Virus record (IMG/VR): IMGVR_UViG_2716884767_000001
Coordinates: 103,510 to 167,509 of that record
From: a virus
Length of the DNA: 64,000 nt
Reading direction: 5' to 3' (one strand)
Shown here: piece after piece, positions 24,885-63,697 of the stretch
Layout: every line of letters begins with the position of its first letter
Position numbering within the stretch: the stretch's first letter is position 1
Program-made: the position numbers and the translations under genes
Notes under the pieces: generated by a model
Databases searched by the model: none
Seen by the model: only the letters and a program-made list of their open reading frames with translations
Told to the model about the DNA's origin: nothing

Positions 24885-26059
24885 TGGCTTTAAGACATCA
24901 AGGTAAACCTATTGTAAGAGATGGATTGGTTTTTTGTATCGATCCTTTGAATGATAAGAGTCTTACAAAACCAATAGATATTAATATTATTGTGAAGGCA
25001 GATTATAATTTAAGTCATGATCACTATTCACTGCACAGCAGCAGTGTTAATGGAAAGGATAGAGGTGATTTTGATACTAAATACGATTTTAGTGGAGAAC
25101 AGGATCCTACACTTGTGATGTTTGTAGGAGATACGATTAAATTTGACATGACAACATTTAGTACTATGAATACTGCTGATAATGGTGAGAATGCTTTATG
25201 GATTAAAACAAATCAAAGTACTGGAAGTAGTAATGCAGTTTCCACTCCCGCAGCAATTAATAATGGATCGGATGATCAAGATATTTCTTGGACTCCTTAT
25301 AACGCAGGTACGTATTATTATAATTCCAATTCCCACTCTAGTATGAGAGGACAGATTACCGTAAAGAATGATCCTAAAAACATACTTGATGTCTCTGGTT
25401 ATGGTCAATTTGCTGCAAAAAGTGCTTCGATGGGAAAGGCAACAGTGGTTGGAATTTCAAGTTATACTGGAGTAGGTAATGCAATTTATTTAAATGGTAG
25501 TGATAATTATATTCAATTGCCATTAGGTAGTACAAGTGAGGCAGGTGAAAACTTATTTGGATCTTATTGGTCTTTTGATATGTGGGCATATTTGGATACT
25601 GACAGTGTAGATACAGGCACTTACGCAAATTACAATAGTCCACAAGGTCTTTTTACCATGAGTTCTGAAGATGATTGGAATTCAGGAACAACCTCAAATT
25701 CAGGTTTTGCATTTGGGTGGAATCGTGTATGGTATAAAGAAGATGGTGGATCAACTCAAACTAGTATGAGTTGGACTGGACCATCAGTTCGAACATGGCA
25801 TCATTTTTGTGTGACACATAATAATGGCACGGCAACTTTGTATATTGATGGTGCTTCAGTAACATCAGCAACTAATTTTAAAGATGAATTTTCTGGAGAT
25901 ACAGGACAGAGAGCTATAGGTCTCACTGATAGGTATAGTGGAAATTATAGAGGTTGTTTTAAGGGTTATATCGGTGGTTTTAAACACTACACACGAACTT
26001 TATCTGCCACAGAAGTATCAACAAATTACGGCGCAACAAGAGGGAGGTTTGGAGTCTAA
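24884..26059 (+). CDS. Virion structural protein: LamG domain with an inserted cupredoxin-like module
   Basis: GLVFCID...GTYYYNSNSHSSMRGQITV...WHHFCVTH, LYIDG, YTRTLSATEVSTNY. Confidence 0.72.
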   Translation: MALRHQGKPIVRDGLVFCIDPLNDKSLTKPIDINIIVKADYNLSHDHYSLHSSSVNGKDRGDFDTKYDFSGEQDPTLVMFVGDTIKFDMTTFSTMNTADNGENALWIKTNQSTGSSNAVSTPAAINNGSDDQDISWTPYNAGTYYYNSNSHSSMRGQITVKNDPKNILDVSGYGQFAAKSASMGKATVVGISSYTGVGNAIYLNGSDNYIQLPLGSTSEAGENLFGSYWSFDMWAYLDTDSVDTGTYANYNSPQGLFTMSSEDDWNSGTTSNSGFAFGWNRVWYKEDGGSTQTSMSWTGPSVRTWHHFCVTHNNGTATLYIDGASVTSATNFKDEFSGDTGQRAIGLTDRYSGNYRGCFKGYIGGFKHYTRTLSATEVSTNYGATRGRFGV

Positions 26060-27648
26060 TGGCTAGTCGTTCAGGACCAAAACTTGTAGGATTAAATAAT
26101 TTGGAAGCGTGTTTTGATGCAGGAAATTTTAAAAGTTATGATACAACTGTGACCCCCACCACCCCTAATGCTCAAACATCATATACCACTGCGGGATCTT
26201 ATAGTTTCGTAGTGCCTGTTGGCATCACTTCAATATCTGCCGTATGTGTCGGTGGTGGTGGAGGTGGTGGTAATAATGGTGAAAATGCAAACGATGATGA
26301 TGCAGGTGGTGGAGGTGGTGGAGGGTTAGCATATGGAACATTTGCAGTCACACCAGGTGAAACTTTAACTGTCATTGTTGGTGCTGGAGGTGCTGGAGGT
26401 ACAACATCATCACGTGATGGTGGTGATGGTGGAAGCAGTACAATATACAACTTGAATACCAATGGATCAATTAATCAAACTCTTCTTCGAGGTTATGGAG
26501 GAGGAGGTGGTGGTCAAGGCATTAATGGTACTGCCGACGGTGGAAATGGTGGAACATTTTCAGGTATAGCAACTGTTACTGGTGGTGGTGGAAATGGTGG
26601 AAATGGTGGAAATGGTGGTGGAGGCGGAGGAGGTGCAGGAGGTGCAGGCGGATATAGTGGTGATGGTGGTTATGGACAAGCTTTTGGAGGAGCTGGTGCA
26701 GGTACAGATGGTGCAGGTGGTGGAGGAGGTGGAACTGGTTCTGTAGATAGTGTTAATGGTAACGCATCACCAAAAAAAGGTGGTGGAGTGGGAATACTTG
26801 GACAAGGGTCAAATGGAGCAGGTGGAGCTGCAAATGCTGATGGAGGAGCAGGTTCAGGTGGTTCGGGTCAAAACTATGGTGGAGGTGGTACAGGTGCATT
26901 TAAGTATACACCTACAGGAATATATGCACACAATTATAATGACGGGCAAGGTGGTGCTGGAGGTGCTGTCAGACTTGTGTATCAACCAACTATAGGTAAT
27001 CGACAATATCCTGATGGATCTGGCACATTGAGTAACCTTGCAGATACGACTTATTCATTTAATATAGTTTCTGATAAATGGAAAGATATAAGCGGAAAGG
27101 GACTTATAGCAACTTTATCTGGTGCAACATTTAATGGAGCAAATGGTGGTGTTTTAGTTTTTGATGGAACTGATGATTATGTAGTAACAGGTTCTGATAT
27201 GTTTAATGCAAATGCTGATTTTACAATTTCTATGTGGTTTAATTCAGATGATTTTTCAGAACAAAAAGCTTTTGTTGCAGATGTTGATAATTCACAAAGT
27301 TTATTTTTAAGATACAATAGTGGTATACAAGTAGTTAACAGTAATACAGCAGTTCTTGGTAGTTTTACTTCTTCAACTTTATCAACAAACACTTGGCATA
27401 ATGTAACTGTAACTAAATCATCTAACACATATAGATTATATGTTGATGGTAACTATAAGTCTCTTCTTATTTTTAGCCATACTTATTCTCATAATCCAAA
27501 TACTATTGGTGCGAATCACAATATAGGAGGAGGGGCTAAAAACTTTTTTGACGGAAAGATTGCAAAAGTCCTTGCTTATAGTACTGCACTTTCTGATTCT
27601 GAAGCTTCTAGTCACTATGAAACTTTTAAACATAGATTTGGAATATGA
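26059..27648 (+). CDS. Virion structural protein: LamG domain with an inserted Gly-rich module
   Basis: LEACFDAG, VCVGGGGGG Gly-rich block, WHNVTVT, LYVDG, YSTALS. Confidence 0.75.
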   Translation: MASRSGPKLVGLNNLEACFDAGNFKSYDTTVTPTTPNAQTSYTTAGSYSFVVPVGITSISAVCVGGGGGGGNNGENANDDDAGGGGGGGLAYGTFAVTPGETLTVIVGAGGAGGTTSSRDGGDGGSSTIYNLNTNGSINQTLLRGYGGGGGGQGINGTADGGNGGTFSGIATVTGGGGNGGNGGNGGGGGGGAGGAGGYSGDGGYGQAFGGAGAGTDGAGGGGGGTGSVDSVNGNASPKKGGGVGILGQGSNGAGGAANADGGAGSGGSGQNYGGGGTGAFKYTPTGIYAHNYNDGQGGAGGAVRLVYQPTIGNRQYPDGSGTLSNLADTTYSFNIVSDKWKDISGKGLIATLSGATFNGANGGVLVFDGTDDYVVTGSDMFNANADFTISMWFNSDDFSEQKAFVADVDNSQSLFLRYNSGIQVVNSNTAVLGSFTSSTLSTNTWHNVTVTKSSNTYRLYVDGNYKSLLIFSHTYSHNPNTIGANHNIGGGAKNFFDGKIAKVLAYSTALSDSEASSHYETFKHRFGI

Positions 27649-27691
27649 AAATAATATTAAATCACTAAATAAAATTAACTTACAAATTTAT

Positions 27692-28063
27692 ATGAGTCTT
27701 CTCCATTCATCGAAAGCTTATGTTTTTAATTTACAGACAACAAGTTCAGCAGAGGCAAAGAGATTATGGAGGAAAGATATAAAAGAAAAATGGAATTGGC
27801 AGTGTGCATATTGTGGGGATGATAGTAATCTAACCATCGATCATGTGGTACCAAGATGTAAGGGAGGTACAGACTTCACAAAAAATGTAGTCTGTTGTTG
27901 TAATAAATGCAATCAAAGAAAAGGACATGAATCTTGGGAGGAGTGGTATTTTAATCAAGATTTCTTTAGTATGAACAGATATAATAAAATTCAAAAGTGG
28001 ATGAAACCTGACGTTACCAAAGATCTTTTTTTGTATAAACCAAGAAGAAATAACTTAACATAA
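27692..28063 (+). CDS. Free-standing HNH endonuclease
   Basis: CAYCG, TIDHVVPRCKGG, NVVCCCNKCNQRKG; CTAAATA late core at 27665 supports ATG 27692. Confidence 0.9.
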   Translation: MSLLHSSKAYVFNLQTTSSAEAKRLWRKDIKEKWNWQCAYCGDDSNLTIDHVVPRCKGGTDFTKNVVCCCNKCNQRKGHESWEEWYFNQDFFSMNRYNKIQKWMKPDVTKDLFLYKPRRNNLT

Positions 28064-28120: not shown

Positions 28121-31100
28121 ATGGCGACGCCGATACGAATTAAAAGATCTGCAGTTTCTGGTAAGAAACCACAGAATATAGATTTACAAGTAGGAGAATT
28201 AGCTCTTAATACATACGATGGATCCCTTTTCACTAAGAGAGACACAGGTGGTGTAGGGATAGCAACGACAGTAAGTAATATTACACCGTGGGTAGAGAAT
28301 TTTGGTGGGACATCAATAAATTATTCGAGTGGTAATGTTGGTATTGGAAGTGATATCCCAACATCGAAATTAGATATTAATGGATCTTTAAATGTATCTG
28401 CAGGCGCTACATTTGCTGGTGACATAACTGCTAATGGAAATATAGTAGGTGATGATTCAACAAATATATCTGGTATCAGTTCTGTAACTGCCACAAATCT
28501 TTATGGTGCTTTAACGGGAAATGTTCAGGGTAATCTAACTGGAACAGTTCTAACTGGTGCTCAACCAAATATAACTTCATTAGGAACTCTAGGTTCATTA
28601 AATGTAACTAATAAGATTACTGCTAATGATTTTGAGTCTACAGTATCGACAGGAACTGCACCATTCGTAGTCGCATCCACAACAAAGGTAACAAATTTAA
28701 ATGCAGATTTATTAGATGGTAAATCTACAGCAAATAGTAATGTCGGAAATAGTATAGTTATTCGTAATGCTGCTGGAGGATTTATTGCAGGTGATGTAAA
28801 TTTCCAAAGTATAGTTGGAACTGCATTGTCGGTTTCTGGTATATCAACCTTTAACAGTGGTGTAGGTATTGCTGATTCAATATTTAATATTGAACATCCA
28901 AATACTGCAATCAGATTTCTTACTGAAGAAGTCGCAATTGAAACTGCTGGCACGGAAAGACTTCGTATCACATCATCAGGTGAAGTTGGTATTGGAACTA
29001 TAAGTCCAGCATCAATGTTTCATATACACTCTGGAGTACCAAGAATTACAATGAGTGATAGTGGAACTGGAGTTCATCACAAAATTAATGCGGACTCTTC
29101 TGTTGGTAATTTTGCATTTGATGTTGATTATGATTCCATCACTTCCACTCCTGCATTCATAGTTAATATTAAAGATGGGGAAAAACTTCGCATCACATCA
29201 ACAGGTAAAGTTGGTATTGGAACTGCGAATCCAACAGCACATCTTCAAGTTTATAGAGCAACTCAATTTGCAAGTAATCCAATAATTCAGGCAAGATCTA
29301 ATAATGGAAGCACCAATGAATTAAAATTTGAAATTGATGGTGATGGTGATGCTTATTTTAATGGTAAAGTTGGTATTGGAACTCTTGTCCCATCTCATGA
29401 ACTGACTTTATTTGGGGATGATCCCATAATTGAAATTCTAGAAAAAAGTGTTAGTTCAAAAGTCACAATAGGTACAGGAACTGTTCAAGGTTTTATAAAC
29501 ATTCAAAAAGCTGATGGAACAAGAACTGTTCAAATAAGCAGTGATGGTAATAGTTATTTTAAAGGTGGTAAAGTTGGTATCGGAACTAATGATCCATCAG
29601 CAATATTTGATGTTACAGATGGTACAACAAGAATATCTTTTAATAGAACAAACAATACACCACGAATTGATTTTAAATCAAATAATGTTGCAGATTTATG
29701 CCAAATAAAAGCATCAGAATCAGTTGGTGGTGGAGTCCTACAAGTTTTTACCAAAACTACTGGCGGTACTTCTACAGAAAGAGTTCGTATCTTATCTGAT
29801 GGAAAAGTAAAGATATGTCATGTTGATGGTGAAAACCCTACTGAACCTCTTCATGTAGTTGCAACTGCGGTCAATCAGGATATTGCAAGATTTACAGGTG
29901 CAAATAGAGATAGAGGGTTAGTAATAAGCACTGGTATTTCTGGAATAACAAATGATGCAGTTATTAAATACAATGCCGATTCTCAAAATAGTGCTGGACA
30001 ACATGTATTTTTGACAGATGGAATCGAAAGACTTCGCATCGATTCAAGTGGTAATTTAAAAGTTACTGGAATAGCTACCTTTGATCAGAATGTATCAATT
30101 GGTGGTACATTAACATATGAAGACGTAACAAATATAGATTCAGTTGGCATTATTACTGCAAGAAGTGGTATTAAGGTGACTGCTGGTGGTATCAACGCTG
30201 TTGGTGTTGTAACTGCTACTCAGGCAGATATTGGTACTGGTGGATTAGATGTAGACGGTACAACAGATTTAGATACTCTTAATGTTTCTGAAGTTTCTAC
30301 ATTCAGTGATAAAATAGTCGTAGATACCAGCAATGTATCAGAATTTAAAGGTAATGGAAGAATAAAAATAAGTGGTGCTACTCAAACCACCAAATTACAT
30401 TTACAGAGAGGCAGCACTTCCGATGTTGCAATGAGATTTGAAAATAACCATGGTAGTATTTACGCTGGACTCGCTGCTGGTTTTAATAACAATCAAAGAT
30501 TTATTATTGGACTAGATGCTGATTTATCTGATGATCCAATATTAATAGCTAATGAAACCAAGCATGTAATTGTTGGAAGTTCTACTACTGGTGCTACCTT
30601 TAGTGGTGCAACTGGTGATGCAAAAATCACTGGTATTTTAACAGCAACATCATTCTCTGGTTCTGGTGCAAGTTTGACAGGACTAACTGGTGCATCTGCA
30701 AACACTTACGGTAATTCCAATAATACTCCAGTAATCACTGTCGATGGTAATGGTAGAATTACTACTATCACAACTGCCTCAATTTCTGGTGGAGGTGGAA
30801 ATGTTGCAGGTATTGACACCACGGGCACATCAGTTTTTAATACTTTAGATATAGGTGGAGATATAGATGTAGATGGTCATACTGAATTAGATAATTTAAA
30901 TGTAACTGGTGTCTCTACCTTTAATCAATTAGCTACTTTTAGTAATGGTATAAACATTCCAACCAATAAAACAATTGGATTGGGAGATACTACTAGTGCA
31001 ACTATAGAATATAATTCATCGGGTGTGATGAATAGGTTGAATAAACATGGTGCGGATGATTTTACATGGAAATTGGAGGATCAAGCTGGAACTATGCATA

Positions 31101-34100
31101 TGGAAGTTAGGTCTGGTACAACTAACTCATATGTTCAATTAAGACAAAATGGCAATATCAAATTTGAAACAAAGGATTATGGTGTTGAAATAACAGGAAC
31201 CACTGATACTGATCAATTAAATGTATCTGGTGTTTCAACTTTAGGTGGAAAAGTAAGAATTAATAATACTGATTTAACTACTAGTTCTTCTGCTGATGAA
31301 TTAATTATTGGAGATACAAGTGGTAACAGAGGACTAACGATTTTCTCAGGAACATCTAACACTGGAAATATTTTCTTTGCTGACACATCAACCACTGGTG
31401 TTGGAAATAGAATGGGAACCATTACTTATGATCACAGTGATAACTATATGAGATTTTCCACGAGTGGAAATCAAGAAAAACTTCGTATCGTATCAGATGG
31501 TAAAGTTGGTATCGGACTTACTAATCCAGATGGTCAATTACACATTTCTTCTGGAACATCTGGTGATTGTCGTGTTTACATTGAGGCAGACGCAGACAAT
31601 AATGCCGAGGGAGACAATCCATTTATTATCTTCAAAAATGATGGAGGGATAGAAAATGCTTCTGTTTGGTGTGGAAATACTGATGGTGGCACTAATGACA
31701 ATAGTTTAAATCTTTCTGCATCAACATCTGTTAATGGTGGTATTAGATTTTTCACTGGTGATACTGATGGTGATTGGGAAACAGCAGATGAGAGAGTTCG
31801 TATCACACCAGATGGAGAACTTTTAATAAATGCAGTCACTGAGAGATCATACGTTGATGGTGCTGGATTTACTCAAACTCCCAAACTACAAGTAGAATCA
31901 AATAGTAATGTCGATACTGCAATATCATTAAGATATAATTCTGGTGGTGGTGCTGTTGGACGAAGAGCATCATTTATTTTTGCAAGAACTGCCGATGGAA
32001 GTGCAGTGTCAAATAACAGTGTTTTAGGTGAAGTTCTCTTTATGGGAGAGGGCAACAGCACTCTCGAAAAAGCAGCATCCATTCGTGCAGAAGTTGATGA
32101 AACACCAGGCACAAATGATATGCCTGGTAGATTGATATTTTCTACAAGTGCTGATGGTTCGGATTCTCCGACAGAAAGACTTCGCATCGATAAAGATGGA
32201 AAAGTTGGTATCGGAACTGATTTAACTACCACCCCATCATCCACTTTAACCGTAGCACCTCATAACTCAGCTTCTGGTCGTAATATTTCAATCTATACAA
32301 GTGGTGCTGTTGGTAATAAAGCAGGTCTATTTTTCAATTCGACTTCAGGAACTGGAAACCTAGCAGAAATTCAAGCAGAATATAAGGGAACTAATGAAGG
32401 TGAATTAGTTTTAAGCACTTCGATGCAGAAACGACTTACTATCAATAAGGATGGTAATGTTGGTATCGGAACTGATGCTCCAGGTGCTGCCCGACTTAAA
32501 GTTGTACACGATGGTCTTGATCAAGTAATACAGCAGTGGGGAGGTGCTCAAGGTCCAACTGCTGGCCAGAGATTTATGGAGTTGTATTCTCCAGCGACTG
32601 ATAATGCGAATGATTACTTCAGATTCCAAACAGGTAATGCATTTAAATTTAGAATTGACAACACAGATGCATTAGCAATGAATTCAAGTGGTAATGTTGG
32701 TATTGGAACTGATAGTCCACAGTCAAGATTATATGTGCTTGGAGATGCTCGTATTACTGGTATACTAACTGTTGGGCAAAGTTCTCTAACATTAGATGGA
32801 GATAATAATATAGTCAATGTAGGAACAGCACTAACACTTGGTCATACACAAGGTGTTCAGTTCCATACACAAAATTTACATGCTTCTGGTTTTGAGGTTA
32901 ATCAGATAAATGCAACAGGAATTATAACTGCCAATACATTTAAAGGTGCACTGACTGGTAATGTTACTGGTACTGCAACACTGGCATCAGGATTGACAGG
33001 TACACCTAGCATTACAGTTCAGGATATTACCGCTGAAATGGTTTCTATTGGTGGAACATTAACATATGAAGATGTAACAAATATAGATTCGATTGGTATA
33101 ATTACTGCGAGAGATAATATAAAGTTAACAGCAGCAGAAGGTCAAATAGAGGCAACTGGTTCAACTGGACTTACCTTAAATGCTTCAGATGGTTCTGCCT
33201 TTGCAAGAATCAGAGTGGCAGGAGATACTAGACTTCACATCACATCAGATGGTAATGTTGGTATCGGAACTGCCACAGCACCTCATTTGTTAAGTGTTAA
33301 GGGCACTATCTCTAAGATATCTAGTACATCTGGAATACAATTAGTAAATATAGCAAATGATGCATCACAAAATGGAACAATTGCAATAAATCAATCTGGT
33401 GGAACAGAAAGAATAAAATTACATTCTAGTGGTGCAAGTTATTTCAATGGTGGTAACGTTGGTATTGGAAGTGCTGTTCCATCACAGAAATTAGATGTTG
33501 CTGGTAATATAAAAGCTACTGGACAAGTAAGGGTATCTGATGGAACAACTGCAGAACCAAGTGTAGCAGCAGCATCTGATACTAACTCAGGATTGTATTT
33601 TCCTGGTGCTGATGCTGTGGGATTAGTTGCTGGTGGATCTCGAAAATTATTAGCAAATTCAAGTGGTGTAACAATTAATAATGGTGATTTAGCAGTTAAT
33701 GGTGGTAATTTAGATGTTTCTGAAGACATAAGACATATTGATAATACAAATACAAAGATATCATTTACTAGTAATACAATATCATTTGATACTGCAGGAG
33801 ATGAAAGACTTCGCATCACATCAGGTGGTAAAATAGAAGTCAAAGGAACTCGTGCAGGTTCTTTACAAGCAAGTGATGATGATACATTACAACTTTATAC
33901 TGCAAGCACTAATAATAATATCGACAGAGGAGCAGGTATAACTTTCTATAATCACGATAATAGTGGTTATGAGATGGGTGGAACCATTCAGGTAGCAAAA
34001 GAGAATGGAACTGCTGATGATGTAGCAGCATATATGAGATTTTCCACACGACCTGCTGGAGGATCTGCAACAGAAAGACTTCGCATCGACTCAGATGGTA

Positions 34101-37100
34101 AATTACTTATCGGTATAAATGCATCAACATCTGGTGATGGGCAGTTACAGTCATTTAAACCTACTGGTAATAATAGCACAGTTGTAGTTGGTAATGTTGC
34201 CACAGCTGCTGATGGTCTAACTAGAGTAGATTTTTGCCCATCAAACAGTACTGTTGGAGCAAGAATAGAATGTCATGCTACTGAAGATTTCTCAACAGTT
34301 GCAAAACGAACAGCAGATTTAGTTTTCGTCACAAGAAAAGACGGGACACATTCTGAAAAACTTCGCATCAACTCTGATGGTCGCTTATTACTGAATGATA
34401 TTTCATCAAGGGTTGTTGCTAATATCACTGCTCAACTTCAATTAGAAGGAACAACAGCAAATACATCTGCTATTTCAATTACAAGAAATTCTGATAATGC
34501 GTCTCCACCATATCTAAGTTTTGGAAAATCGAGAGCAACTTCTACTGGCGGTACTACTATTATCCAAGATGATGATAATTTAGGGGAGATTAGGTTTAGT
34601 GGTACTGATGGTAATGATTTAACTAATCATGCTGCAAGTATTAATGTAGAGGTAGATGGAACACCTTCAAATAATGTTACACCAGGTCGTTTGATATTCA
34701 GCACTGCAAGTGGTTCTGATGCAACAGAAAGACTTCGCATCACATCAACAGGTTTGTTGCAAGGTACATCAGGTCAACACGATGGAGGACTTGAGTTACT
34801 GTCTGGAAATAATAACCAATCAACAAGATTAAGAATACAATCAAAAAGTTCAGGTGGAACTGCTTATAACTGGTATCTCGACTCCGCACGTAGTGCTGAT
34901 AGATTTACTATTCATGATGGTTCAACCAGTTGGTTTACAATATTAGGAACTGGTTATGTTGGCATTAACGAAACCAGTCCAATTTATGCACTATCAATAG
35001 GAATCAACACTGGAACTGCATGGGATTCAACAAAAAATATATCTAACACAACAAATAATGACTTTATAGGATTAAATCTAACCAATTCAAATTCAGCAGC
35101 TAACGCTGAAGTGGGAATACTGTTCCAATCAACCACTAGTGGTGCGGGACAATATAGTATAAATTGTAGAAAATCTGCTGGTAGTCAAGCTGATTTAATT
35201 TTCAGAACAAGAGATGGTGGTGCTGCAAGTAAAGAAACACTTCGCATCGCATCTGATGGTCAAACAACTGTAAGTTCTACTTCTAACCAACCTTTAGTTC
35301 TAAACAATACAAATGCTAATGGGCAATCAAGTATTTCTTTCCAAAGTGCTGGTTCAACAAAATATAATTTGGGAAGTAATAAAGATGGTGATGGTAATAT
35401 AGATTTCTTTATCTATGATCAAATTAATAGTGCACACAGATTTAATATAAAAGCAGATGGTAATATCGGTATCGGAACTGATAATCCAACAAATAAACTT
35501 GAAGTATATGGAACTGATGCTGCAGTAACTTTATTAAATTATGGTCAATCAAGTGGTGGTCTAGCTGCTTGGCCAAGCGGAAGACTTGCATTTGTTTCAG
35601 CACATCAGAATGATGATTTAGTATTTGGTTACTCTAATAGCACACTGCAAGTAGAAAACTTTGTTGAAGCAATGAGAATTGATAATGGAACTGGTAAGGT
35701 TGGTATCGGAACTATTAATCCAGACGAACTACTCCATCTTTTTTCAGCATCTAGTGATTCAAAGATAGTATTAGAAGCAGGTAATAATTCTGCTGTTAAT
35801 GGAATATTTTGGAATGATGAAAATAGTAATACACAATCTGAATTCTATTATTCACATCCTGATAATAAACAATTTTTAAAATTTAATGGTAATGGTCTTG
35901 AGATTTATTCAAATCAAACAAGCTCGACAATTGCAAAGGTTGGTCATGGAATTGGTTATAATGAAGTTGTAATACCAAACGGTAAAGTTGGTGTCGGAAC
36001 TGATGATCCTAAAACGGATCTAGATGTTCGAGGATCTATTAGTATGCTTGATTCTCTAGTGGCACCCCATGGTGGTACAGTCACCTATGCTGTCACTGTT
36101 GCAGCTAAAGTAAATCACAGATATCCTGCTGGTAGTCAGTCCAGTTCAAATGCTTTTTATATTGATGGTATTGAGTCCCCTGTTCTTACTCTAACACCAG
36201 GTAGAACATATAGATTTACACATGATAATACTGGAAGTCATCCACTCAAATTCTACCACCAAGCAGATAAAACAACATTATATACATCAGGTGTAGATTT
36301 CCAAAACACATATACTGAGATAACAGTTACTAAGACAACTCCAAGTGTTTTATATTATCAATGCACTGCTCATGATCGCATGGGTAATGCTGTTATTACA
36401 AATTCAGAGGGACTTTACCACGTAGGTGTTTCTACCTTTACTTCAGTTATTCATGCAAACAATGGAATTAAATTAACATCTTCTGATAATAAGAGTATAA
36501 TATTAGGTGAACATGAAGACATGCGTATGAGGCATACGGGTAGTCATTCGGAGATAACTGATGAGGGAACTGGTAGTTTAAGACTTGGTGGAGATCAAAT
36601 AGTAATAGGTAATGCTGCTTTTGATGAAACTAACGCAGTCATTAAACAGGGAGCAACAGGATATGTTGTATTAAAGCAGAATGGAAATACAAAATTAACA
36701 ACAACTAACACTGGAGTTGTCGTAACGGGAATCCTAACTGCAACATCATTTAAAGATGCTAATGGAAATACGATTGGTGGTGGAGGTGGAGGTGTAACAG
36801 TTCAAGATGAAGGTAGTGCATTATCAACCACAGGAACTACACTTAACTTTGTAGGAAATGGTGTTGTTGCATCAGGAACTGGAGCAACTAAAACAATTAC
36901 TATTTCAGGTGGTGGTAGTGGTGTAACAGTTGGTAATCAAGGTTCTGATTTATCCACATTAGGAACAACTCTGAACTTTGTGGGTTCTGGTGTTGTTGCA
37001 TCAGGAACTGGAGCAACTAAAACAATCACAATTAGTGGTGGTGGAGGTGGAACTGGTGGTAAGTTTGTAGAAAACGCAACTGGTATTCATACTTTAGGTA

Positions 37101-37756
37101 ATGTTGGTCTTGGAACAACCAATGCAAGCGAAGCAATATTAAACATTAGTACTGGTGCTGGTGTAACTGATACAGTTGCATTAGATATTCAAGGAACTGA
37201 GGGATCATTATTCAGTGTTACAAATAATCTCACAAGTGGATCACTATTTTCGATTAACGATGTCAGTGGTATTCCTGCCTTTGATTATAACGCTAATGGT
37301 AAAATATCCATGGGTGCTTTTGCCGACACCGTTGCGATAGGAAAAACCAGTAGTGGAGTTAAACTTGGAGTTAAAGGTAGTATAACTGAGGGTGTTCATA
37401 TTGTCGCAAATAAACTTAGTGCTGCACCAAATATCAATGTTGACAATGGAAACGTACATTTATTTACAACAAATGAAACAACGACTGCGACACCAAACGT
37501 AACTTCAACTGTTGGACTTAATACATCAATGGATACTGGTGATACTTTAACTGTTGTTATAATTTCAAAACCAAATAATGCTGGATACTATGCAGAGTTA
37601 ACAATTGATGGAGTTGCTCAAACAGAAGAATGGTTGGGTGGAAGTGCACCATCTAGTGCAAGTTCAGATGGATATGATGTAAATACATACAATGTCATTA
37701 AAACTGGTGATGCAGCATACATAGTTCTAGCAAATAGTGTAAACTTCTCAAACTAA
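28121..37756 (+). CDS. Giant modular tail fibre protein (3211 aa)
   Basis: N-terminus IRIKRS...GELALNTYDG; many ERLRITSxGxVGIGT junctions; Gly/Thr/Ser-rich; C-terminal domain ending YNVIKTG. Confidence 0.85.
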   Translation: MATPIRIKRSAVSGKKPQNIDLQVGELALNTYDGSLFTKRDTGGVGIATTVSNITPWVENFGGTSINYSSGNVGIGSDIPTSKLDINGSLNVSAGATFAGDITANGNIVGDDSTNISGISSVTATNLYGALTGNVQGNLTGTVLTGAQPNITSLGTLGSLNVTNKITANDFESTVSTGTAPFVVASTTKVTNLNADLLDGKSTANSNVGNSIVIRNAAGGFIAGDVNFQSIVGTALSVSGISTFNSGVGIADSIFNIEHPNTAIRFLTEEVAIETAGTERLRITSSGEVGIGTISPASMFHIHSGVPRITMSDSGTGVHHKINADSSVGNFAFDVDYDSITSTPAFIVNIKDGEKLRITSTGKVGIGTANPTAHLQVYRATQFASNPIIQARSNNGSTNELKFEIDGDGDAYFNGKVGIGTLVPSHELTLFGDDPIIEILEKSVSSKVTIGTGTVQGFINIQKADGTRTVQISSDGNSYFKGGKVGIGTNDPSAIFDVTDGTTRISFNRTNNTPRIDFKSNNVADLCQIKASESVGGGVLQVFTKTTGGTSTERVRILSDGKVKICHVDGENPTEPLHVVATAVNQDIARFTGANRDRGLVISTGISGITNDAVIKYNADSQNSAGQHVFLTDGIERLRIDSSGNLKVTGIATFDQNVSIGGTLTYEDVTNIDSVGIITARSGIKVTAGGINAVGVVTATQADIGTGGLDVDGTTDLDTLNVSEVSTFSDKIVVDTSNVSEFKGNGRIKISGATQTTKLHLQRGSTSDVAMRFENNHGSIYAGLAAGFNNNQRFIIGLDADLSDDPILIANETKHVIVGSSTTGATFSGATGDAKITGILTATSFSGSGASLTGLTGASANTYGNSNNTPVITVDGNGRITTITTASISGGGGNVAGIDTTGTSVFNTLDIGGDIDVDGHTELDNLNVTGVSTFNQLATFSNGINIPTNKTIGLGDTTSATIEYNSSGVMNRLNKHGADDFTWKLEDQAGTMHMEVRSGTTNSYVQLRQNGNIKFETKDYGVEITGTTDTDQLNVSGVSTLGGKVRINNTDLTTSSSADELIIGDTSGNRGLTIFSGTSNTGNIFFADTSTTGVGNRMGTITYDHSDNYMRFSTSGNQEKLRIVSDGKVGIGLTNPDGQLHISSGTSGDCRVYIEADADNNAEGDNPFIIFKNDGGIENASVWCGNTDGGTNDNSLNLSASTSVNGGIRFFTGDTDGDWETADERVRITPDGELLINAVTERSYVDGAGFTQTPKLQVESNSNVDTAISLRYNSGGGAVGRRASFIFARTADGSAVSNNSVLGEVLFMGEGNSTLEKAASIRAEVDETPGTNDMPGRLIFSTSADGSDSPTERLRIDKDGKVGIGTDLTTTPSSTLTVAPHNSASGRNISIYTSGAVGNKAGLFFNSTSGTGNLAEIQAEYKGTNEGELVLSTSMQKRLTINKDGNVGIGTDAPGAARLKVVHDGLDQVIQQWGGAQGPTAGQRFMELYSPATDNANDYFRFQTGNAFKFRIDNTDALAMNSSGNVGIGTDSPQSRLYVLGDARITGILTVGQSSLTLDGDNNIVNVGTALTLGHTQGVQFHTQNLHASGFEVNQINATGIITANTFKGALTGNVTGTATLASGLTGTPSITVQDITAEMVSIGGTLTYEDVTNIDSIGIITARDNIKLTAAEGQIEATGSTGLTLNASDGSAFARIRVAGDTRLHITSDGNVGIGTATAPHLLSVKGTISKISSTSGIQLVNIANDASQNGTIAINQSGGTERIKLHSSGASYFNGGNVGIGSAVPSQKLDVAGNIKATGQVRVSDGTTAEPSVAAASDTNSGLYFPGADAVGLVAGGSRKLLANSSGVTINNGDLAVNGGNLDVSEDIRHIDNTNTKISFTSNTISFDTAGDERLRITSGGKIEVKGTRAGSLQASDDDTLQLYTASTNNNIDRGAGITFYNHDNSGYEMGGTIQVAKENGTADDVAAYMRFSTRPAGGSATERLRIDSDGKLLIGINASTSGDGQLQSFKPTGNNSTVVVGNVATAADGLTRVDFCPSNSTVGARIECHATEDFSTVAKRTADLVFVTRKDGTHSEKLRINSDGRLLLNDISSRVVANITAQLQLEGTTANTSAISITRNSDNASPPYLSFGKSRATSTGGTTIIQDDDNLGEIRFSGTDGNDLTNHAASINVEVDGTPSNNVTPGRLIFSTASGSDATERLRITSTGLLQGTSGQHDGGLELLSGNNNQSTRLRIQSKSSGGTAYNWYLDSARSADRFTIHDGSTSWFTILGTGYVGINETSPIYALSIGINTGTAWDSTKNISNTTNNDFIGLNLTNSNSAANAEVGILFQSTTSGAGQYSINCRKSAGSQADLIFRTRDGGAASKETLRIASDGQTTVSSTSNQPLVLNNTNANGQSSISFQSAGSTKYNLGSNKDGDGNIDFFIYDQINSAHRFNIKADGNIGIGTDNPTNKLEVYGTDAAVTLLNYGQSSGGLAAWPSGRLAFVSAHQNDDLVFGYSNSTLQVENFVEAMRIDNGTGKVGIGTINPDELLHLFSASSDSKIVLEAGNNSAVNGIFWNDENSNTQSEFYYSHPDNKQFLKFNGNGLEIYSNQTSSTIAKVGHGIGYNEVVIPNGKVGVGTDDPKTDLDVRGSISMLDSLVAPHGGTVTYAVTVAAKVNHRYPAGSQSSSNAFYIDGIESPVLTLTPGRTYRFTHDNTGSHPLKFYHQADKTTLYTSGVDFQNTYTEITVTKTTPSVLYYQCTAHDRMGNAVITNSEGLYHVGVSTFTSVIHANNGIKLTSSDNKSIILGEHEDMRMRHTGSHSEITDEGTGSLRLGGDQIVIGNAAFDETNAVIKQGATGYVVLKQNGNTKLTTTNTGVVVTGILTATSFKDANGNTIGGGGGGVTVQDEGSALSTTGTTLNFVGNGVVASGTGATKTITISGGGSGVTVGNQGSDLSTLGTTLNFVGSGVVASGTGATKTITISGGGGGTGGKFVENATGIHTLGNVGLGTTNASEAILNISTGAGVTDTVALDIQGTEGSLFSVTNNLTSGSLFSINDVSGIPAFDYNANGKISMGAFADTVAIGKTSSGVKLGVKGSITEGVHIVANKLSAAPNINVDNGNVHLFTTNETTTATPNVTSTVGLNTSMDTGDTLTVVIISKPNNAGYYAELTIDGVAQTEEWLGGSAPSSASSDGYDVNTYNVIKTGDAAYIVLANSVNFSN
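28955..36001 (+). repeat. Dispersed in-frame junction repeats GAAA(G/A)ACTTCG(C/T)ATC and GGTAA(A/T)GTTGGTAT(C/T)GGAACT
   Basis: 12 copies of the first (e.g. 28955, 29180, 30026, 32174, 33803, 34073, 34355, 34727, 35234) and more than 10 of the second (e.g. 29204, 29363, 29567, 31499, 32453, 33251, 35693, 35981). Confidence 0.85.
30092..33112 (+). repeat. Two copies of a 72-nt module (VSIGGTLTYEDVTNIDS[VI]GIITAR)
   Basis: 30092-30163 and 33041-33112. Confidence 0.85.
36791..37048 (+). repeat. Tandem duplication of a 129-nt (43-aa) unit
   Basis: GVTV...TTLNFVG.GVVASGTGATKTITISGGG twice, starting 36791 and 36920. Confidence 0.9.
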
Positions 37757-37757
37757 T

Positions 37758-38693
37758 ATGTCTCCTTTTTTATCAGTATTTGGATTGTCAGGACCTGCTC
37801 CATCTTCTGTTATTTCGAGTGCTGGTGGTGCTGGTGGAGATTCTGGTCAACAGGCATTTACAACTACTGGATCAGAAACTTGGACTGTTCCTAGTGGTGT
37901 AACTTCTATCAGCGTTGTTTGTGTAGGTGGTGGTGGAGGTGGAGCTCGAGCACAATCAGGTAACGTAGGTCCTCAAGGTGGATCTGGTGGTGGTTTAGCT
38001 TATCAAAATAATATATCGGTCACTGCTGGTGAATCTTTGACTGTAACTGTAGGATCTGGTGGTGCTGCTGGTGGAGCAGATGGATCTACAACTACTGGTG
38101 GTAATGGTGGATTTAGCCAACTTGCTAGAGGTGCTACGGTTTTAGTAAAAGCAAACGGTGGTATTGGAGGAATCAGACAAAATAATGGAAGACAGGCAGG
38201 CGGTTCAGGTGGATCTACTTTAGGATATACTGGTGGCGGTGATGGTGGATATGGCGGTTACGGTGTATACAATGGTGCTGGTGGTGCTGGTGGTGGTGCT
38301 GGTGGATACTCTGGTAATGGTGGTAATGGTGGTGCTGGTAATAATAATCAATATCAAACTGCTGGTTCTGGTGGAGGAGGCGGCGGTGGTGAAGCAGATG
38401 GTGTTGGATCAGGTGGAGGCGGTGGTGTCGGTATTCTAGGAGAGGGTTCCAGTGGAGCTGCTACTGGTAATGCTTCTGGTGGATGGGGTGCTGGTGGAAA
38501 TGGTGGTTCTGGTGGTGCTAATGGAGGAACATCATCTGGTGGTGTTGGTGGTGCTGGTGGTGCATATGGAGGAGGAGGCGGAACAGATGAAGACGATTCA
38601 TATAACGATGGTGGAGCTGGAGGACAAGGAGCTGTTAGAATTATTTGGGGTACTGGTAGAGCATTTCCATCAACTAATACTGGTGACGTGTAG
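37758..38693 (+). CDS. Glycine-rich protein following the tail fibre (possible distal adhesin)
   Basis: Polyglycine blocks; same module as in 26059-27648 (TWTVPSGVTSISVVCVGGGGGG ... GAVRIIWG). Confidence 0.7.
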   Translation: MSPFLSVFGLSGPAPSSVISSAGGAGGDSGQQAFTTTGSETWTVPSGVTSISVVCVGGGGGGARAQSGNVGPQGGSGGGLAYQNNISVTAGESLTVTVGSGGAAGGADGSTTTGGNGGFSQLARGATVLVKANGGIGGIRQNNGRQAGGSGGSTLGYTGGGDGGYGGYGVYNGAGGAGGGAGGYSGNGGNGGAGNNNQYQTAGSGGGGGGGEADGVGSGGGGGVGILGEGSSGAATGNASGGWGAGGNGGSGGANGGTSSGGVGGAGGAYGGGGGTDEDDSYNDGGAGGQGAVRIIWGTGRAFPSTNTGDV

Positions 38694-59014: not shown

Positions 59015-62000
59015 ATGTCAAATATATCTGTAACTGGTAATGAGGCACAATTTAATGAAAATGTAACTTTTCTAAAAGATGTTGATATTAGGGGATCTTT
59101 GTCTGTTCCTGAAATTAATTCATCCAGTTTTTCAGTTACAGGTGTTGCTACATTTACAAATCAAGTCACATTTAATCAAGGTTTATCATTTCCTGATTTA
59201 GAAGTTAGAGATTTTCTAAAAGTAGGTATAGGTGGAACAGTATTAAGTGCAAATTCACTTTTAAATCCTGGTAAAGTTGGTATCGGAACTACAAATCCAA
59301 CAGAATTACTTGATGTATTTGGAAAAGCAAAGATAAAAGATTTAGAGCTAGAAACTCTTTTAGTAACAGGTATATCAACATTAAGTGGCATCACAACTCA
59401 AAAAAGCACTTTGTTTACAAAACAATTAAGTTCTGCTGGAGTTTCTACCTTTTTTAATACCGTAAATGTTAAAACCGCTGGAGGTAGTGAAATTGAAGAT
59501 GCCAGTGGAACTCTTGATATAAGATCGAATAAAATTACTTTAACAAATCAATCTGACAACCAAAATTACGCAGTATTTACAAACAGTGCAGGTGTAGAAT
59601 TATTACATGCAAATTATAAAAAATTTGAAACAAGTAGTGATGGTGTTATATCTTCAGGTGATTTAATTGTAAATGATGTTGGTATTCGAACATCAGGAGT
59701 TGGACTTGGAACTGATGTTATTAAACCTATACCATTAACAGGAGAGTATAGTAACAGTACTCAAGGAGCTCTAAGACTCGTTATTGATGGTAGTGTTTCA
59801 ATTTCAAGAAACATTTATGATAGTGAGGGATCACCTGGAGCAGCTAACTTCTTTTTAAAGAGGACTGGAACTGGTATTCGATGGACACAAATTGCACCAG
59901 GACAGGGAGATGGAATTGAATTAGAGAATGAGGGTCAGTCAGTTCCTGCTGCTGGAGTTGCTCAAACTTTTACATCGGTTAATTTTGCACAAGAAAATAG
60001 TTTCGGTATTGGAGTTGATAATATAACTGCAACTGCTGCTGATACTTCTACTCCAGCAGGTTCTGGTTTAGCTACTGTATTTACTTCTGATTTTTGGGGA
60101 GTTGAAGAGGGACACGTAGGATTAGATACTGGCATCTACAGAATGACAAATGTTGGTATTGGAAGTTCTGTTCCAAGTGTTAAATTAGATGTAATTGGAA
60201 ATACAAAGTTACTAGGAACTTTAAGTGTTGATCAAACTGCCACATTCAATGGAAGTATAGATGCAAATGCTAATTTAGATGTAGATGGCACAACAGATCT
60301 TGACACTCTGAATGTTGATGATACTGCAACATTCGATGGAAATATAGTCGCAAATGCTGATTTAGATGTAGACGGTACAACAGATTTAGATGTTCTGAAT
60401 GTTTCTGAAACTGCTACATTCGACGGAAATATAGATGCAAATCAAGATTTAGATGTAAATGGAAGAACTGAATTAGATATTACCAATATTGATGAAACAC
60501 TTCGAGTAGGTGGAATATCAACGTTTGTAGGTGTATCTACATTTAACAATCAGATATTTACAAATAAAATATCAAATTCAGGTATAATAACCTCAAATAT
60601 GATTCACCTCACAGGTGGATCATTTACTGCTCCCGCTCCTGGTGGTGATACAAAAAATGATACTGCAATTGTTGTTGGTGAAGACTTCGGTATTTACTCA
60701 TTAGAATTACAGGCAGGTAATGATAATAAGTATTTAAGATCTATTATACAAAAAGACTCAAATGTAATAAGTATTGGTGAACCAGATACTAACTATATTG
60801 AAGCAATTGATTTAAAACCAGGTTTATCTGGTAGTGTTAGAATTCATCATGGCACTAGTGCAACTAATAATATTAAGATTCAAACCACTGGAGCTGGTGT
60901 CACAGTCTTTGGAAATCTTGAATCACAAACTTTAAATATTACAGGATTATCAACATTTGGTGGTGCGGTTGATATAAATGATAATTTAGATGTAAGCGGA
61001 AGAACTGAATTAGATATTACCAATATTAGTGAAACTCTCAACGTCACAGGTCTTTCAACATTTGGTAGTGCGGTTGATATAAATGCTAATTTAGATGTAG
61101 ATGGAATAACCGAATTAGATATTACCAATATTAGTGAAACTCTCAACGTCACAGGTCTTTCAACATTTAATGATAATGTTAGATTAATAGATGCTAAACA
61201 ATTAATATTTGGAACATCAGACGGACTAGAGATATATCATGATGGTGATTCATATATCAGAGCAGAAACTGGTGATTTATTCATTCAACAGACGAATTCT
61301 GACAAGGATATTAAAATACAAGGCATAAATGGAACAGAAGGTATCATAGTTGAGGGTGGTGGTTCATATAATGTTAAATTACATTCTTCAGGAATCCTTA
61401 AATTAGAAACAAATGATAGTGGTATTGATATAACTGGTCATACAGAAACAGATACCTTGAAAGTAAGTGGTCTTTCAACATTTAAGAGTGCTGTTGATAT
61501 AGATGCCGATTTAGATGTAGATGGAAAAACTGAATTAGATATCACTAATATTAGTGAAACCCTTAAAGTTGCAGGTATCTCAACATTCAGTAGCACGGTT
61601 GATTTTGATAGCACGATTAAAGATCGTAATGATGACGTTGGTACTACAGTTGCTGAAAATCTTTCAAATGACATAACAGATGCATCATATAATTCAACAA
61701 CTGGCATAATGGTCATAACCATTGCTAATCATGGTTTTCTGACTGGTGATTCTATACAGATACCCGATGGTACAATAACTTTTAGTTGTAATTATAAGGG
61801 AGTAACTCTTAATCAATCATATCCAAGATCAAAAGATCCAAATAGTGGTAAATGGTTGGTTATTACAAAAATTGATGATAATAGTTTCTCAGTCGATGTT
61901 GGTGATGGTGGACTTTCTGTTGGAGTCACACACAATTTTGAATCTGCAAGTGGTGGTGTTCTTCATTCTTCAGGACAATATGTTGAGTATGATTATCGTC

Positions 62001-63697
62001 TAGCATCAGTCGGAACTGGTGTTTCATGGAGACCATCTGGAGTTCAAACTAAAAGAACAATATGGGTTTCTAAAAGTGGATCTGATAATAATAGTGGATT
62101 ACTTGAAGGTGATGCAAAAGCAACTGTTGGTGCTGCAGCATCAATAGCAGTTGAGACTGATACAATTAAAATTAGACCTGGTGTTTATGAAGAGAATAAT
62201 CCAATCGGGTTAAGAACAGATGTTTCAGTTACAGGAGAGGATCTTCGTTTGGTTATAATTAAACCAAAAAATAAAAACAAAGATGTTTTTCATGTAAGAA
62301 GAGGATGTTTAATTGAGAATTTAAACTTTGGTGGATCAAATGTTGGAGTTGGTTATGATGGATCAGCATGTGTTGCGTTTCCTCCACCATCAGGTGCTGG
62401 ACATGGTGCAGTTAGTGGTTACAAAGATCCTGGTCCTGCAACTGAGGGTCCAAGTGGAAGATGGAGATCACCATATGTAAGAAACTGTACAAACTTCATG
62501 ACCAGTAGTATTGGAATGAAAATAGACGGAGATCATGCTACTGCATCTACGATAGGTGCTGATTTAAAATCCATGGTATGTGATTCTTTCACACAATATA
62601 ATGAGAATGGTATTGGTGTTTCATTAACAAATGATGCATATGCACAATTAGTTTCAATATTTACTATTAACTGTGATATTGGTATTTTTGCAGGATCTGG
62701 TGCACAGTGCGACCTGACAAACTCAAACTCTTCATTTGGTAATTTTGGTTTAGTTGCAGTTGGATTAGGATCAACTCAGTTCACAGGAATTGTAAGTAAT
62801 ACAAATACGGCAAATGAACTTATACTAAGTACTTCAGCTGATACTCAAGATACTGTTGTTTGTGCAAATGTTAAAGATGATTCTGATGGAAATAATACGA
62901 TGCCTTTTACTGGAGCAGTTCGAAGACCGTTTGATGGGCAAGCATTATATTTTAAGATAGATTTATCCAATTATCCAGATGTGCCTCCTGCAGATCAAGC
63001 AACTGGAAGAATTACAGCTCCACTTCGACAGTTGAGATCTATAAATTTAATTGAAGGTGCTGATGCAAGTGGATATAGTGCTTTTGATCCACCGAGTGTT
63101 TTAATAAGAGATGCTGATGGAGAACTTGAACCAAAAGGACCACAAGGAATTATCGCTGAGGCTACAGCAACAGTGAGTCCAACTGGTAATATAACTGCGA
63201 TTAGTGTGGTGGCACAGGGTAGAAATTATCTTCCGACTCAAAATATAGTTGTAGATATTGAAGGTGAAACTGGAATTGCCACTGCTGTTATGGAACCAAT
63301 ATATTTTACAGTTGAATCGGCAACTCAAACAGAAAATCCAAGTGGAATAACCACAATAACTTTTAATGAATTTGTTCCTTATGAGTTATTTCCAGACGAT
63401 CCATTTACACTTCAAAGAATTAGTCGAGTCTTAACAAGTTCTCATTCATTTGAATATGTTGGTACGGGTACAGATATAAATATAGCGACACCCCTACAAG
63501 GTGCAATTCCTATAAAAGAGAATGAAATTGTAGCAAAAGATGGAGCACAAATTCCATTTACATCAACCGATCAAAAAGGTAACTTTGATATTGGTTCAGG
63601 ATTACAAATAAATCAAACAACTTCAACAATTTCAGGAAGAGACTTTAGTAGATCATTGCAAGCAGAAGTTACACCATTAATACTAGCATTAAGATAA
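59015..63697 (+). CDS. Large fibre-like virion protein (1560 aa) with a C-terminal pectin-lyase-like beta-helix
   Basis: GKVGIGT and LDVDGTTDLD repeats; TIWVSKSGSDNNSG...IKIRPGVYEE typical of beta-helix N-caps. Confidence 0.7.
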   Translation: MSNISVTGNEAQFNENVTFLKDVDIRGSLSVPEINSSSFSVTGVATFTNQVTFNQGLSFPDLEVRDFLKVGIGGTVLSANSLLNPGKVGIGTTNPTELLDVFGKAKIKDLELETLLVTGISTLSGITTQKSTLFTKQLSSAGVSTFFNTVNVKTAGGSEIEDASGTLDIRSNKITLTNQSDNQNYAVFTNSAGVELLHANYKKFETSSDGVISSGDLIVNDVGIRTSGVGLGTDVIKPIPLTGEYSNSTQGALRLVIDGSVSISRNIYDSEGSPGAANFFLKRTGTGIRWTQIAPGQGDGIELENEGQSVPAAGVAQTFTSVNFAQENSFGIGVDNITATAADTSTPAGSGLATVFTSDFWGVEEGHVGLDTGIYRMTNVGIGSSVPSVKLDVIGNTKLLGTLSVDQTATFNGSIDANANLDVDGTTDLDTLNVDDTATFDGNIVANADLDVDGTTDLDVLNVSETATFDGNIDANQDLDVNGRTELDITNIDETLRVGGISTFVGVSTFNNQIFTNKISNSGIITSNMIHLTGGSFTAPAPGGDTKNDTAIVVGEDFGIYSLELQAGNDNKYLRSIIQKDSNVISIGEPDTNYIEAIDLKPGLSGSVRIHHGTSATNNIKIQTTGAGVTVFGNLESQTLNITGLSTFGGAVDINDNLDVSGRTELDITNISETLNVTGLSTFGSAVDINANLDVDGITELDITNISETLNVTGLSTFNDNVRLIDAKQLIFGTSDGLEIYHDGDSYIRAETGDLFIQQTNSDKDIKIQGINGTEGIIVEGGGSYNVKLHSSGILKLETNDSGIDITGHTETDTLKVSGLSTFKSAVDIDADLDVDGKTELDITNISETLKVAGISTFSSTVDFDSTIKDRNDDVGTTVAENLSNDITDASYNSTTGIMVITIANHGFLTGDSIQIPDGTITFSCNYKGVTLNQSYPRSKDPNSGKWLVITKIDDNSFSVDVGDGGLSVGVTHNFESASGGVLHSSGQYVEYDYRLASVGTGVSWRPSGVQTKRTIWVSKSGSDNNSGLLEGDAKATVGAAASIAVETDTIKIRPGVYEENNPIGLRTDVSVTGEDLRLVIIKPKNKNKDVFHVRRGCLIENLNFGGSNVGVGYDGSACVAFPPPSGAGHGAVSGYKDPGPATEGPSGRWRSPYVRNCTNFMTSSIGMKIDGDHATASTIGADLKSMVCDSFTQYNENGIGVSLTNDAYAQLVSIFTINCDIGIFAGSGAQCDLTNSNSSFGNFGLVAVGLGSTQFTGIVSNTNTANELILSTSADTQDTVVCANVKDDSDGNNTMPFTGAVRRPFDGQALYFKIDLSNYPDVPPADQATGRITAPLRQLRSINLIEGADASGYSAFDPPSVLIRDADGELEPKGPQGIIAEATATVSPTGNITAISVVAQGRNYLPTQNIVVDIEGETGIATAVMEPIYFTVESATQTENPSGITTITFNEFVPYELFPDDPFTLQRISRVLTSSHSFEYVGTGTDINIATPLQGAIPIKENEIVAKDGAQIPFTSTDQKGNFDIGSGLQINQTTSTISGRDFSRSLQAEVTPLILALR
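60242..60502 (+). repeat. Three tandem 87-nt (29-aa) units
   Basis: Units start at 60242, 60329, 60416 (TF.G.I.AN.DLDV.G.T.LD..N). Confidence 0.85.
60950..61588 (+). repeat. 105-nt (35-aa) repeats: two tandem copies plus one dispersed copy
   Basis: Units start at 60950, 61055 and 61475 (STF..AVDI..NLDV.G.TELDITNISETL.V.G.). Confidence 0.85.

Follow-up and report, generated by a model that had tools for sequence, protein, structure and literature searches.

Short in-frame junctions with a conserved rare-codon spelling in the giant modular tail-fibre gene of a marine phage

The stretch of DNA analyzed here, referred to as the window, comprises 64,000 nucleotides (bases 103510-167509) of the complete 210,333-bp virus record IMGVR_UViG_2716884767_000001 (34% G+C) and contains a giant modular tail-fibre gene whose modules are joined by short in-frame junctions conserved at the level of the DNA. 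The fibre gene (28121..37756, plus strand, P0001) is an open reading frame of 3211 amino acids with matches to PHROG tail-fibre families (E 4e-90); neither the whole protein nor its C-terminal 572 amino acids gave a hit to a Pfam family, and a megablast search of the fibre against sequenced phages returned short islands only. Genes for psbA, a gp32-type single-stranded DNA-binding protein, thymidylate synthase as well as baseplate and tail proteins are located nearby, and the closest sequenced phages are S-SKS1, P-SSM2 and P-SSM5 with about 75% DNA identity in the neighbouring genes, which points to a T4-like cyanomyovirus as the source. A second fibre-like gene of 1560 amino acids is present in the window (59015..63697, plus strand), identified by PHROG and motif scan, and two further fibre genes with 9 junctions lie just past the window (genome 168205-184519). 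In total, the genome harbors five fibre-like genes with about 25 copies of the junction.

A module of the fibre opens with the in-frame peptide E-R-L-R-I-T-S-x-G, which is often followed by x-V-G-I-G-T. The gene contains 13 E-x-(L/V/M)-R-I sites, 12 of them, of the type E(R/K/T)(L/V)RI, spelled (CTT/GTT)-CG(C/T)-ATC and eight exactly CTT-CGC-ATC; an earlier note on this DNA had listed 12 junctions and eight exact copies, and every position it gave proved correct. A degenerate junction pattern was detected 13 times in the window (11 times in the fibre) as compared with 0.42 times in shuffles of the window, and all copies of ExLRI and GxVGIGT are on the plus strand. Fetched comparison loci or contigs are designated by L-numbers in the following. 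The exact spelling CTT CGC ATC is found in the composite junction EKLRI-TST-GKVGIGT (29180..29224), where homology blocks to L081, L125 and a paralogue from the same genome begin, in ERLRI at 30026..30040, in the composite junction ERLRI-DKD-GKVGIGT (32174..32218), where the L022 blocks end and the L002 and L011 blocks begin, in ERLRI at 33803..33817, the start of a block shared with L126, in ERLRI at 34073..34087, near which the L126 block ends and a L059 block begins, in EKLRI at 34355..34369, where the L059 block ends, in ERLRI at 34727..34741 and in ETLRI at 35234..35248, the end of a L080 block. CTT CGT ATC is used in the composite junctions EKLRI-VSD-GKVGIGL (31475..31519), at which a 745-nucleotide block with 89% identity to L022 begins, and ERLRI-TSS-GEVGIGT (28955..28999), and GTT CGT ATC in the two ERVRI junctions at 29777..29791 and 31790..31804. 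The thirteenth copy, EAMRI followed by GKVGIGT (35666..35713), is off-type (ATG AGA ATT) and the sole copy in common codons, and motif scanning also revealed a decayed junction, DTRLHI (CTT CAC ATC ACA TCA) with GNVGIGT at 33224..33271, one base off the CGC spelling.

The second motif, G-x-V-G-I-G-T, is present in 15 copies in the fibre by peptide pattern and is spelled GGT-x-GTT-GGT-ATY-GGA-ACT. More than ten copies of a GGTAA-type string had been claimed for it, a count that is reached if one mismatch is allowed (11 copies), as only 6 are exact in the fibre; the exact DNA copy claimed for another fibre-like gene is real and encodes GKVGIGT at 59270-59290. Outside the composite junctions the motif extends from GNVGIGS at 28331..28351, the first copy, to GNVGLGT at 37097..37117, the last one. 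In between, GKVGIGT at 29363..29383 and at 29567..29587 forms the two borders of a module common to the gene at genome 174554, and the decayed junction at 33224..33271 and GNVGIGS at 33452..33472 are the left and right borders of a module common to the gene at genome 168205. Further copies are GNVGIGT at 32453..32473, supported by homology blocks in addition to the motif scan, GNVGIGT at 32690..32710, GNIGIGT at 35459..35479, where a L002 block (91%) begins, and GKVGVGT at 35981..36001.

The spelling of the junctions is clearly non-random. The earlier impression that CGC and ATC are under-used elsewhere was confirmed, as they account for 3% of Arg and 16% of Ile codons in the 177 other genes, in which CGT makes up 0.19 of Arg and CTT 0.25 of Leu. 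Codon usage of the fibre gene outside the motif is ordinary, and a comparison of its junctions with the rest of the gene, the check that had been suggested against genome codon usage, placed the junction codons far from background for Leu (CTT in 10/10 vs 33/187, Fisher p 1e-7), for Arg (CGY in 12/13 vs 11/92, p 8e-9) and for Ile (ATC in 12/13 vs 25/212, p 8e-10). The same holds for all five fibre genes taken together, with CGC in 17/25 junction positions vs 8/336 elsewhere and ATC in 24/25 vs 85/751 (Fisher p 4e-12 to 7e-21), and one third of the 67 CGC codons of the genome lies within the junction motif. This preference is specific for individual positions: AGA, a common codon, is used throughout for the first Arg of ERLRI, a position at which Lys is the alternative residue, and the Gly codons of GxVGIGT are GGT, GGT and GGA in this order. 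Where EKMRI or ERVRI occurs by chance in unrelated genes of the genome, AGA-ATT is used. GC-biased conversion was rejected as a cause, because by eye only 3 of about 15 consensus third positions are G or C and there is thus no general enrichment of GC. An overlapping antisense gene is an unlikely cause as well: there are three antisense open reading frames of 123-136 amino acids, but no conserved antisense feature is given by the junction.

A comparison with other phages shows that marine phages carry at least two dialects of the junction, which sort by contig. Dialect A reads CTT CGC ATC ACA TCA, and dialect B, which is S-TIM5-like, reads CTT CGT ATA ACT TCT. Among sources that were not picked by junction spelling, the 25 copies of the own genome have CGC 17 times, CGT 6 times and ATC 24 times, with ACA as the next Thr in 11/11 and TCA as the next Ser in 13/19 cases, and L125 and L126, which were found via unrelated peptides, use dialect A too. 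The isolate S-TIM5 has 11 copies in three genes with CGT in 10, ATA in 11, ACT in 8/9 and TCT in 10/10 cases; its modules match one another over 35-114 nucleotides only and are, consequently, not recent duplicates. P-TIM68 (CGC in 9/10 with mixed Ile codons) and the pelagiphage HTVC168P (CGT in 5/6) belong to the same set of sources. Among viral contigs, the 15-nucleotide core of dialect A is found in more than 119 stretches and a 21-nucleotide string of dialect B in 112, but we estimate that many single 15-nucleotide matches may be due to chance at this collection size, so that only multi-copy loci are informative. The 21-nucleotide string of dialect A was not found in exact form in any of 185,579 bacterial and archaeal genomes. 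When the copy by which each contig had been found was left out of the count, the contigs found via A contained 110 A and 23 B copies and those found via B contained 193 B and 5 A copies, and the A core is joined to ACA, which lies outside the search string, in 102/114 cases. The rare A-type junctions in B contigs provide 8 flanks, too few to tell an import together with A-type modules. As the dialects sort by contig, the uniformity within genomes and the fixed differences between genomes at four synonymous sites in about 27 nucleotides are the signature of concerted evolution.

With the motifs trimmed off, only 3/210 pairs of modules in the fibre are similar, which is in agreement with the earlier statement that the spacers are mostly unrelated, and the units ending at 32188 and 34741, which had been named as paralogous, are 41% identical. 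Four modules of the fibre have 66-77% protein identity (about 80-90% DNA identity) to two other fibre genes of the genome, and beyond a GxVGIGT or ExLRI motif on each side this identity breaks down. Beyond the genome, the best relative of each fibre module with 80-95% DNA identity is found in a different contig (L050, L081, L022, L002, L126, L059, L080 and L005).

The ends of these homology blocks cluster at the junctions. We collected the unique ends of all blocks of at least 150 nucleotides and at least 78% identity between the fibre and all fetched loci, and 27/45 ends are located within 12 nucleotides of a junction as compared with 11.5% expected (p ~1e-14). A near-allele gave a similar picture: the fibre cluster at genome 162524-184519 aligns with L125 in collinear blocks of 93-96% identity broken by unrelated replacement segments, and 8/13 block ends are within 15 nucleotides of a junction with at least two more at a VSGVSTF-type island. 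The earlier note had named randomly placed breakpoints as a refutation of its interpretation, and both results speak in favour of that interpretation. Such islands are a second kind of conserved element in the fibre. The TLTYEDVTNIDSVGIITA island (copy 1, 30092..30183, plus strand) is written in the ordinary codons TTA, AGA and ATT and serves as a control, and copy 2, TLTYEDVTNIDSIGIITA (33041..33132, plus strand), is 82% identical to it. TLTYEDVTNIDSVGIITA, the VSGVSTF-type island and fibre residues 909-935 (30846-30925) share 80-90% DNA identity with dozens of viral contigs and may be further junction types, as some blocks end there.

The alleles found at the fibre locus also differ in the order and number of modules. 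In the layout of this locus, the conserved N-terminus MATPIRIKRS comes after an HNH gene, and alleles of 514, 676, 822, 869 and more than 3312 amino acids carry 0-13 copies of the motif, with the long allele L050 showing common modules in a different order. The N-terminal anchor MATPIRIKRS...GELALNTYDG is kept in L049, L078, L027, L112 and L050; L049 and L078, both with zero junction motifs, contain within about 100 residues of the anchor a segment of about 30 amino acids matching fibre residues 2730-2762. In addition, 102 nucleotides of a fibre module (32282-32383) are 81% identical to positions 33443-33544 of L123 (pelagiphage HTVC168P), in a gene beside the tail fibre of this Pelagibacter podovirus, which hints at fibre pieces common to phages of very different hosts.

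The junction core and the adjoining module have histories that are separate down to a few bases. Of the junction pairs taken from A-dominant versus B-dominant contigs, 22 have a 150-nucleotide flank that is at least 70% identical. The clearest case is a module of about 215 nucleotides that L010 (A) and L262 (B) share at about 90% identity: the junctions on either side of it follow the dialect of the respective contig, and further out the DNA is unrelated. Two routes would fit this pattern, namely crossovers at the edge of the core or a later conversion of the core to the resident spelling.

Taken together, we consider it probable that this gene family has been shaped by a slow process of recombination and gene conversion which takes place at short in-frame junctions and resembles the one known from T-even fibres. 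The fibre would consist of shaft modules that are mostly unrelated and all begin with the same in-frame junction, and the junction DNA would serve as a short patch of homology for recombination and short-tract gene conversion. Partners would be the about 25 copies in the five fibre-like genes of the genome as well as the fibre genes of co-infecting phages, and crossovers, placed by homology, would exchange, add or remove entire modules without disturbing the reading frame. The enzymes would probably be the phage's own UvsX-type machinery or that of the host, and a gene for a RecA/UvsX-type recombinase is present in the genome. Conversion would keep the junction core of about 27 nucleotides alike within a lineage and thereby preserve the substrate for further exchange, and an effect on host range may result. 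It was also proposed that this happens without reverse transcriptase or invertase, and in line with this the reverse transcriptase family PF00078 is absent from the complete 210-kb record and the resolvase/invertase family PF00239 is absent from the genome, in searches that did not include tyrosine recombinases.

Several points weigh against this reading. The exact identity from copy to copy through the junction is 22 nucleotides at most with a median of 7, and the 45-nucleotide composite junction has a mean identity of 61% between copies, which is short for efficient homologous exchange. In T4, recombination drops steeply below about 50 bp. In both comparisons some block ends lie away from junctions, and the aligner extends blocks across any conserved motif, so that a crossover is placed only to within the motif. 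Furthermore, most of the comparison DNA stems from metagenome assembly, the contigs are not independent and the counts refer to copies and not to events; the exchange itself is read from sequence comparisons. The same pattern in the isolates S-TIM5 and P-TIM68 argues against an assembly artefact, as do repeats which we infer to be below usual assembly k-mers. Given an exact identity of 22 nucleotides or less, exchange events must be rare, and we therefore read the data as exchange on an evolutionary scale, probably at a low rate, plus short-tract conversion and not as a programmed generator of diversity. Of the repeat-mediated shuffling system that the earlier note had suggested, recombination and gene conversion are supported by codons, breakpoints, dialects and decoupled ancestry, whereas such short identity gives no indication of a dedicated or fast system.

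Selection for foldable chimeras would likewise put surviving breakpoints at module borders, and in this respect the data fit such survival as well as homology-guided crossovers. According to this explanation, modules are joined by illegitimate recombination at any position, but a chimera survives only if its joint coincides with a structural border and allows folding; the junction DNA would play no part in the mechanism, and its spelling would have to be explained separately. The very short identity between copies and the block ends outside the junctions would both be expected here, and the motif is indeed a structural element of solved trimeric fibres. However, filtering alone leaves unexplained the near-fixed rare codons and the dialects sorted by contig, which need a process at the level of the DNA, and it does not explain why the core follows the resident genome while an adjoining module of about 90% identity does not. 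For these reasons we regard it as unlikely.

A second alternative is that the spelling is selected at the codon level for translational accuracy, speed or co-translational folding, and that recombination is incidental. Some genes of the phage, which we assume to be highly expressed, favour CGT, ATC, CTT and GGT, for example the gene of the single-stranded DNA-binding protein, but only to fractions of 0.4-0.65, and the motif uses CGC, which is hardly used in these genes, while the third Gly is always GGA. Selection for accuracy usually results in modest codon shifts and not in fixation. CGC-ATC pairs are somewhat enriched outside fibres, where the Ile after CGC-Arg is ATC in 7/12 cases in non-fibre genes vs 16% overall, which may be an effect of codon pairs or local composition. 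To cover the peptide independently of codons, IMG/VR was scanned with the fully degenerate back-translation of ERLRI-xxx-G-x-VGIG, which yielded 111 new loci. Those below 36% G+C write the invariant Arg as AGA in 12/18 and the Ile as ATT or ATA in 17/18 cases and the Leu mostly as TTA, and dialect B uses ATA as well. As AT-rich viral loci write the same peptide in this way, the rare-codon spelling of the junction is not demanded by peptide or translation, and a universal need for CTT-CGC-ATC is ruled out. The control island TLTYEDVTNIDS-GIITA in the same genes is equally conserved, uses TTA, AGA, ATT and ATA and shows only a 1.3-fold excess of shared codons. A general codon optimization of conserved residues was rejected because the TLTYEDV island is written in ordinary codons and CGC is nearly absent from the most codon-biased genes, and as no tRNA genes were found in the phage, the choice of codons was not ascribed to tRNAs of its own. 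Altogether, selection on codons is quite an improbable cause of the spelling. The degenerate scan further revealed that, at loci with 42-50% G+C, another uniform spelling (GAA CGC CTC CGC ... GGG ATT) dominates one contig group, which may be a third dialect or merely reflect closely related contigs.

It is also conceivable that one unit was amplified recently in each lineage and that the spacers then diverged beyond recognition without ongoing exchange. This would yield a uniform spelling within and differences between lineages. Yet the spacers vary in length and have no residual similarity beyond the few pairs mentioned above while the synonymous sites of the junction are not saturated, modules with 80-95% identity recur in other genes and in different contigs with a changed order, modules are common to both dialects, and the block pattern already suggests that the trees of the modules conflict with one another as well as with the genome tree. 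Recent amplification is, thus, highly improbable.

The HNH endonuclease gene (27548..28063, plus strand; PHROG E 2e-34, Pfam HNH_5) is located 58 nucleotides upstream of the fibre, runs into the end of the structural gene before it when TTG is taken as the start, and recurs in this order with a fibre in five contigs (L050, L049, L078, L027 and L112) with 55-86% protein identity. That this enzyme cuts the fibre DNA of phages in the same cell and that the ensuing repair converts the locus, as with the Seg/Mob enzymes of T4, would fit the conserved gene order but is very unlikely, because the same HNH gene adjoins short alleles in which the junction motif occurs once at most, and because the genome has no second copy of it, so that the other junction-bearing fibre genes have no HNH neighbour. 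A link between HNH and the junctions was rejected on account of the alleles without junctions.

The genes on either side of the HNH-fibre pair (26059-27648 and 37758-38693) both carry Pfam Gly_rich_2, the upstream one in addition Laminin_G_3. In L126 a homologue of the downstream Gly_rich_2 gene likewise follows the homologous C-terminus of the fibre, as would be expected if the two were a tip and its partner. Close to the C-terminal part of the fibre, a unit of 129 nucleotides (43 amino acids) is tandemly duplicated with 76% identity between poly-Gly runs (36759-37016).

With regard to the protein fold, fibre residues 275-381 are similar to the tip of Bd2133, a Bdellovibrio fibre of known structure (8OND in two stretches with E 3e-9; 8OML with E 0.07), and the 8OND match suggests a Bd2133-like fold of the phage module. 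A single-sequence AlphaFold2 model of residues 270-500 is all-beta with a mean predicted local distance difference test score of 37 and is unusable. In Bd2133, motifs of the type ERMRI..GNLGLGT recur along trimeric beta-helix regions, and tips are exchanged between paralogues of the mosaic adhesive trimeric (MAT) fibres of Bdellovibrio (accounts in PMC10769870). The recurrence of the same motif (ERMRI..GN.G.GT) along the fibre is shared with our phage, whereas Bdellovibrio is a bacterial predator and not a phage, and the sections of PMC10769870 at hand do not mention codon-level conservation or junction breakpoints. No S74 intramolecular chaperone was found among Pfam families on the whole fibre protein or its C-terminal 572 amino acids, so that the fibre would at most resemble the non-S74 subgroup of MAT fibres. 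Most modules are probably parts of the shaft and not of the receptor-binding tip.

Swapping of modules at conserved fibre motifs is an established idea and not new. For T-even adhesins, exchange within or near conserved motifs has been established (Tetart et al., 1996, 1998, as cited in PMC3157838 and also in PMC1079782), and complex repeats have been noted in cyanophage fibres (excerpt of PMC1079782). As in the T-even adhesins (gp37 motifs; glycine-rich motifs of gp38), where the process is in frame, relies on ordinary recombination and is tied to host recognition in the relevant section of PMC3157838, we find variable segments separated by motifs, conservation of the motif DNA across five genes and many contigs, and homology that ends at the motifs. 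In contrast, the motif (ERLRITS / GxVGIGT), the fold and the phage group, here marine phages, are different, about 25 copies are spread over five genes, the spelling uses rare codons with lineage dialects, and the T-even recombinants were obtained experimentally whereas exchange in our case is inferred. What we add is the rare-codon spelling and the lineage dialects, for which no description was found in the literature; searches on the motif itself and on concerted evolution in fibre motifs returned nothing specific.

Diversity-generating retroelements and Gin/Cin/Min invertase switches also diversify phage fibres, but the present genome has no reverse transcriptase and no resolvase-type invertase, and all its junction copies are on one strand. 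Variable cassettes bounded by short conserved sequences that guide conversion, as here, are known from Neisseria pilE/pilS and Borrelia vlsE; nothing like their silent donor loci, single expression site and high programmed rates was seen here. Short conserved DNA likewise flanks exchangeable units in Botstein-type linker sequences. The PeSL elements of T4-type genomes (PMC2839356) share with our junctions that short conserved DNA flanking exchangeable units is the site of recombination, but they are intergenic and regulatory, whereas the junctions are located inside the reading frame and also encode a structural motif.

Whether mosaic receptor-binding fibres arise by homologous exchange at short linkers or by random joining followed by selection is an old question, and this gene family provides unusually clean material to separate both views: it offers hundreds of copies of one in-frame junction, a rare-codon spelling that the peptide does not require, two dialects sorted by genome, and modules that moved from one dialect to the other without their junctions. 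In practice, the junctions give a rule for parsing giant marine phage fibre genes, which otherwise resist annotation, into units, and they provide a link to the Bdellovibrio fibres with the same motif. A rather doubtful extension is that the junction is a standardized in-frame recombination adaptor across families and hosts of marine phages, with the dialects (A, B and perhaps more) as compatibility groups. If this were true, conversion would hold all copies in the resident dialect and exchange would be easier within than between dialects, so that the spelling of a linker of five to nine codons would partly set who trades fibre modules with whom.

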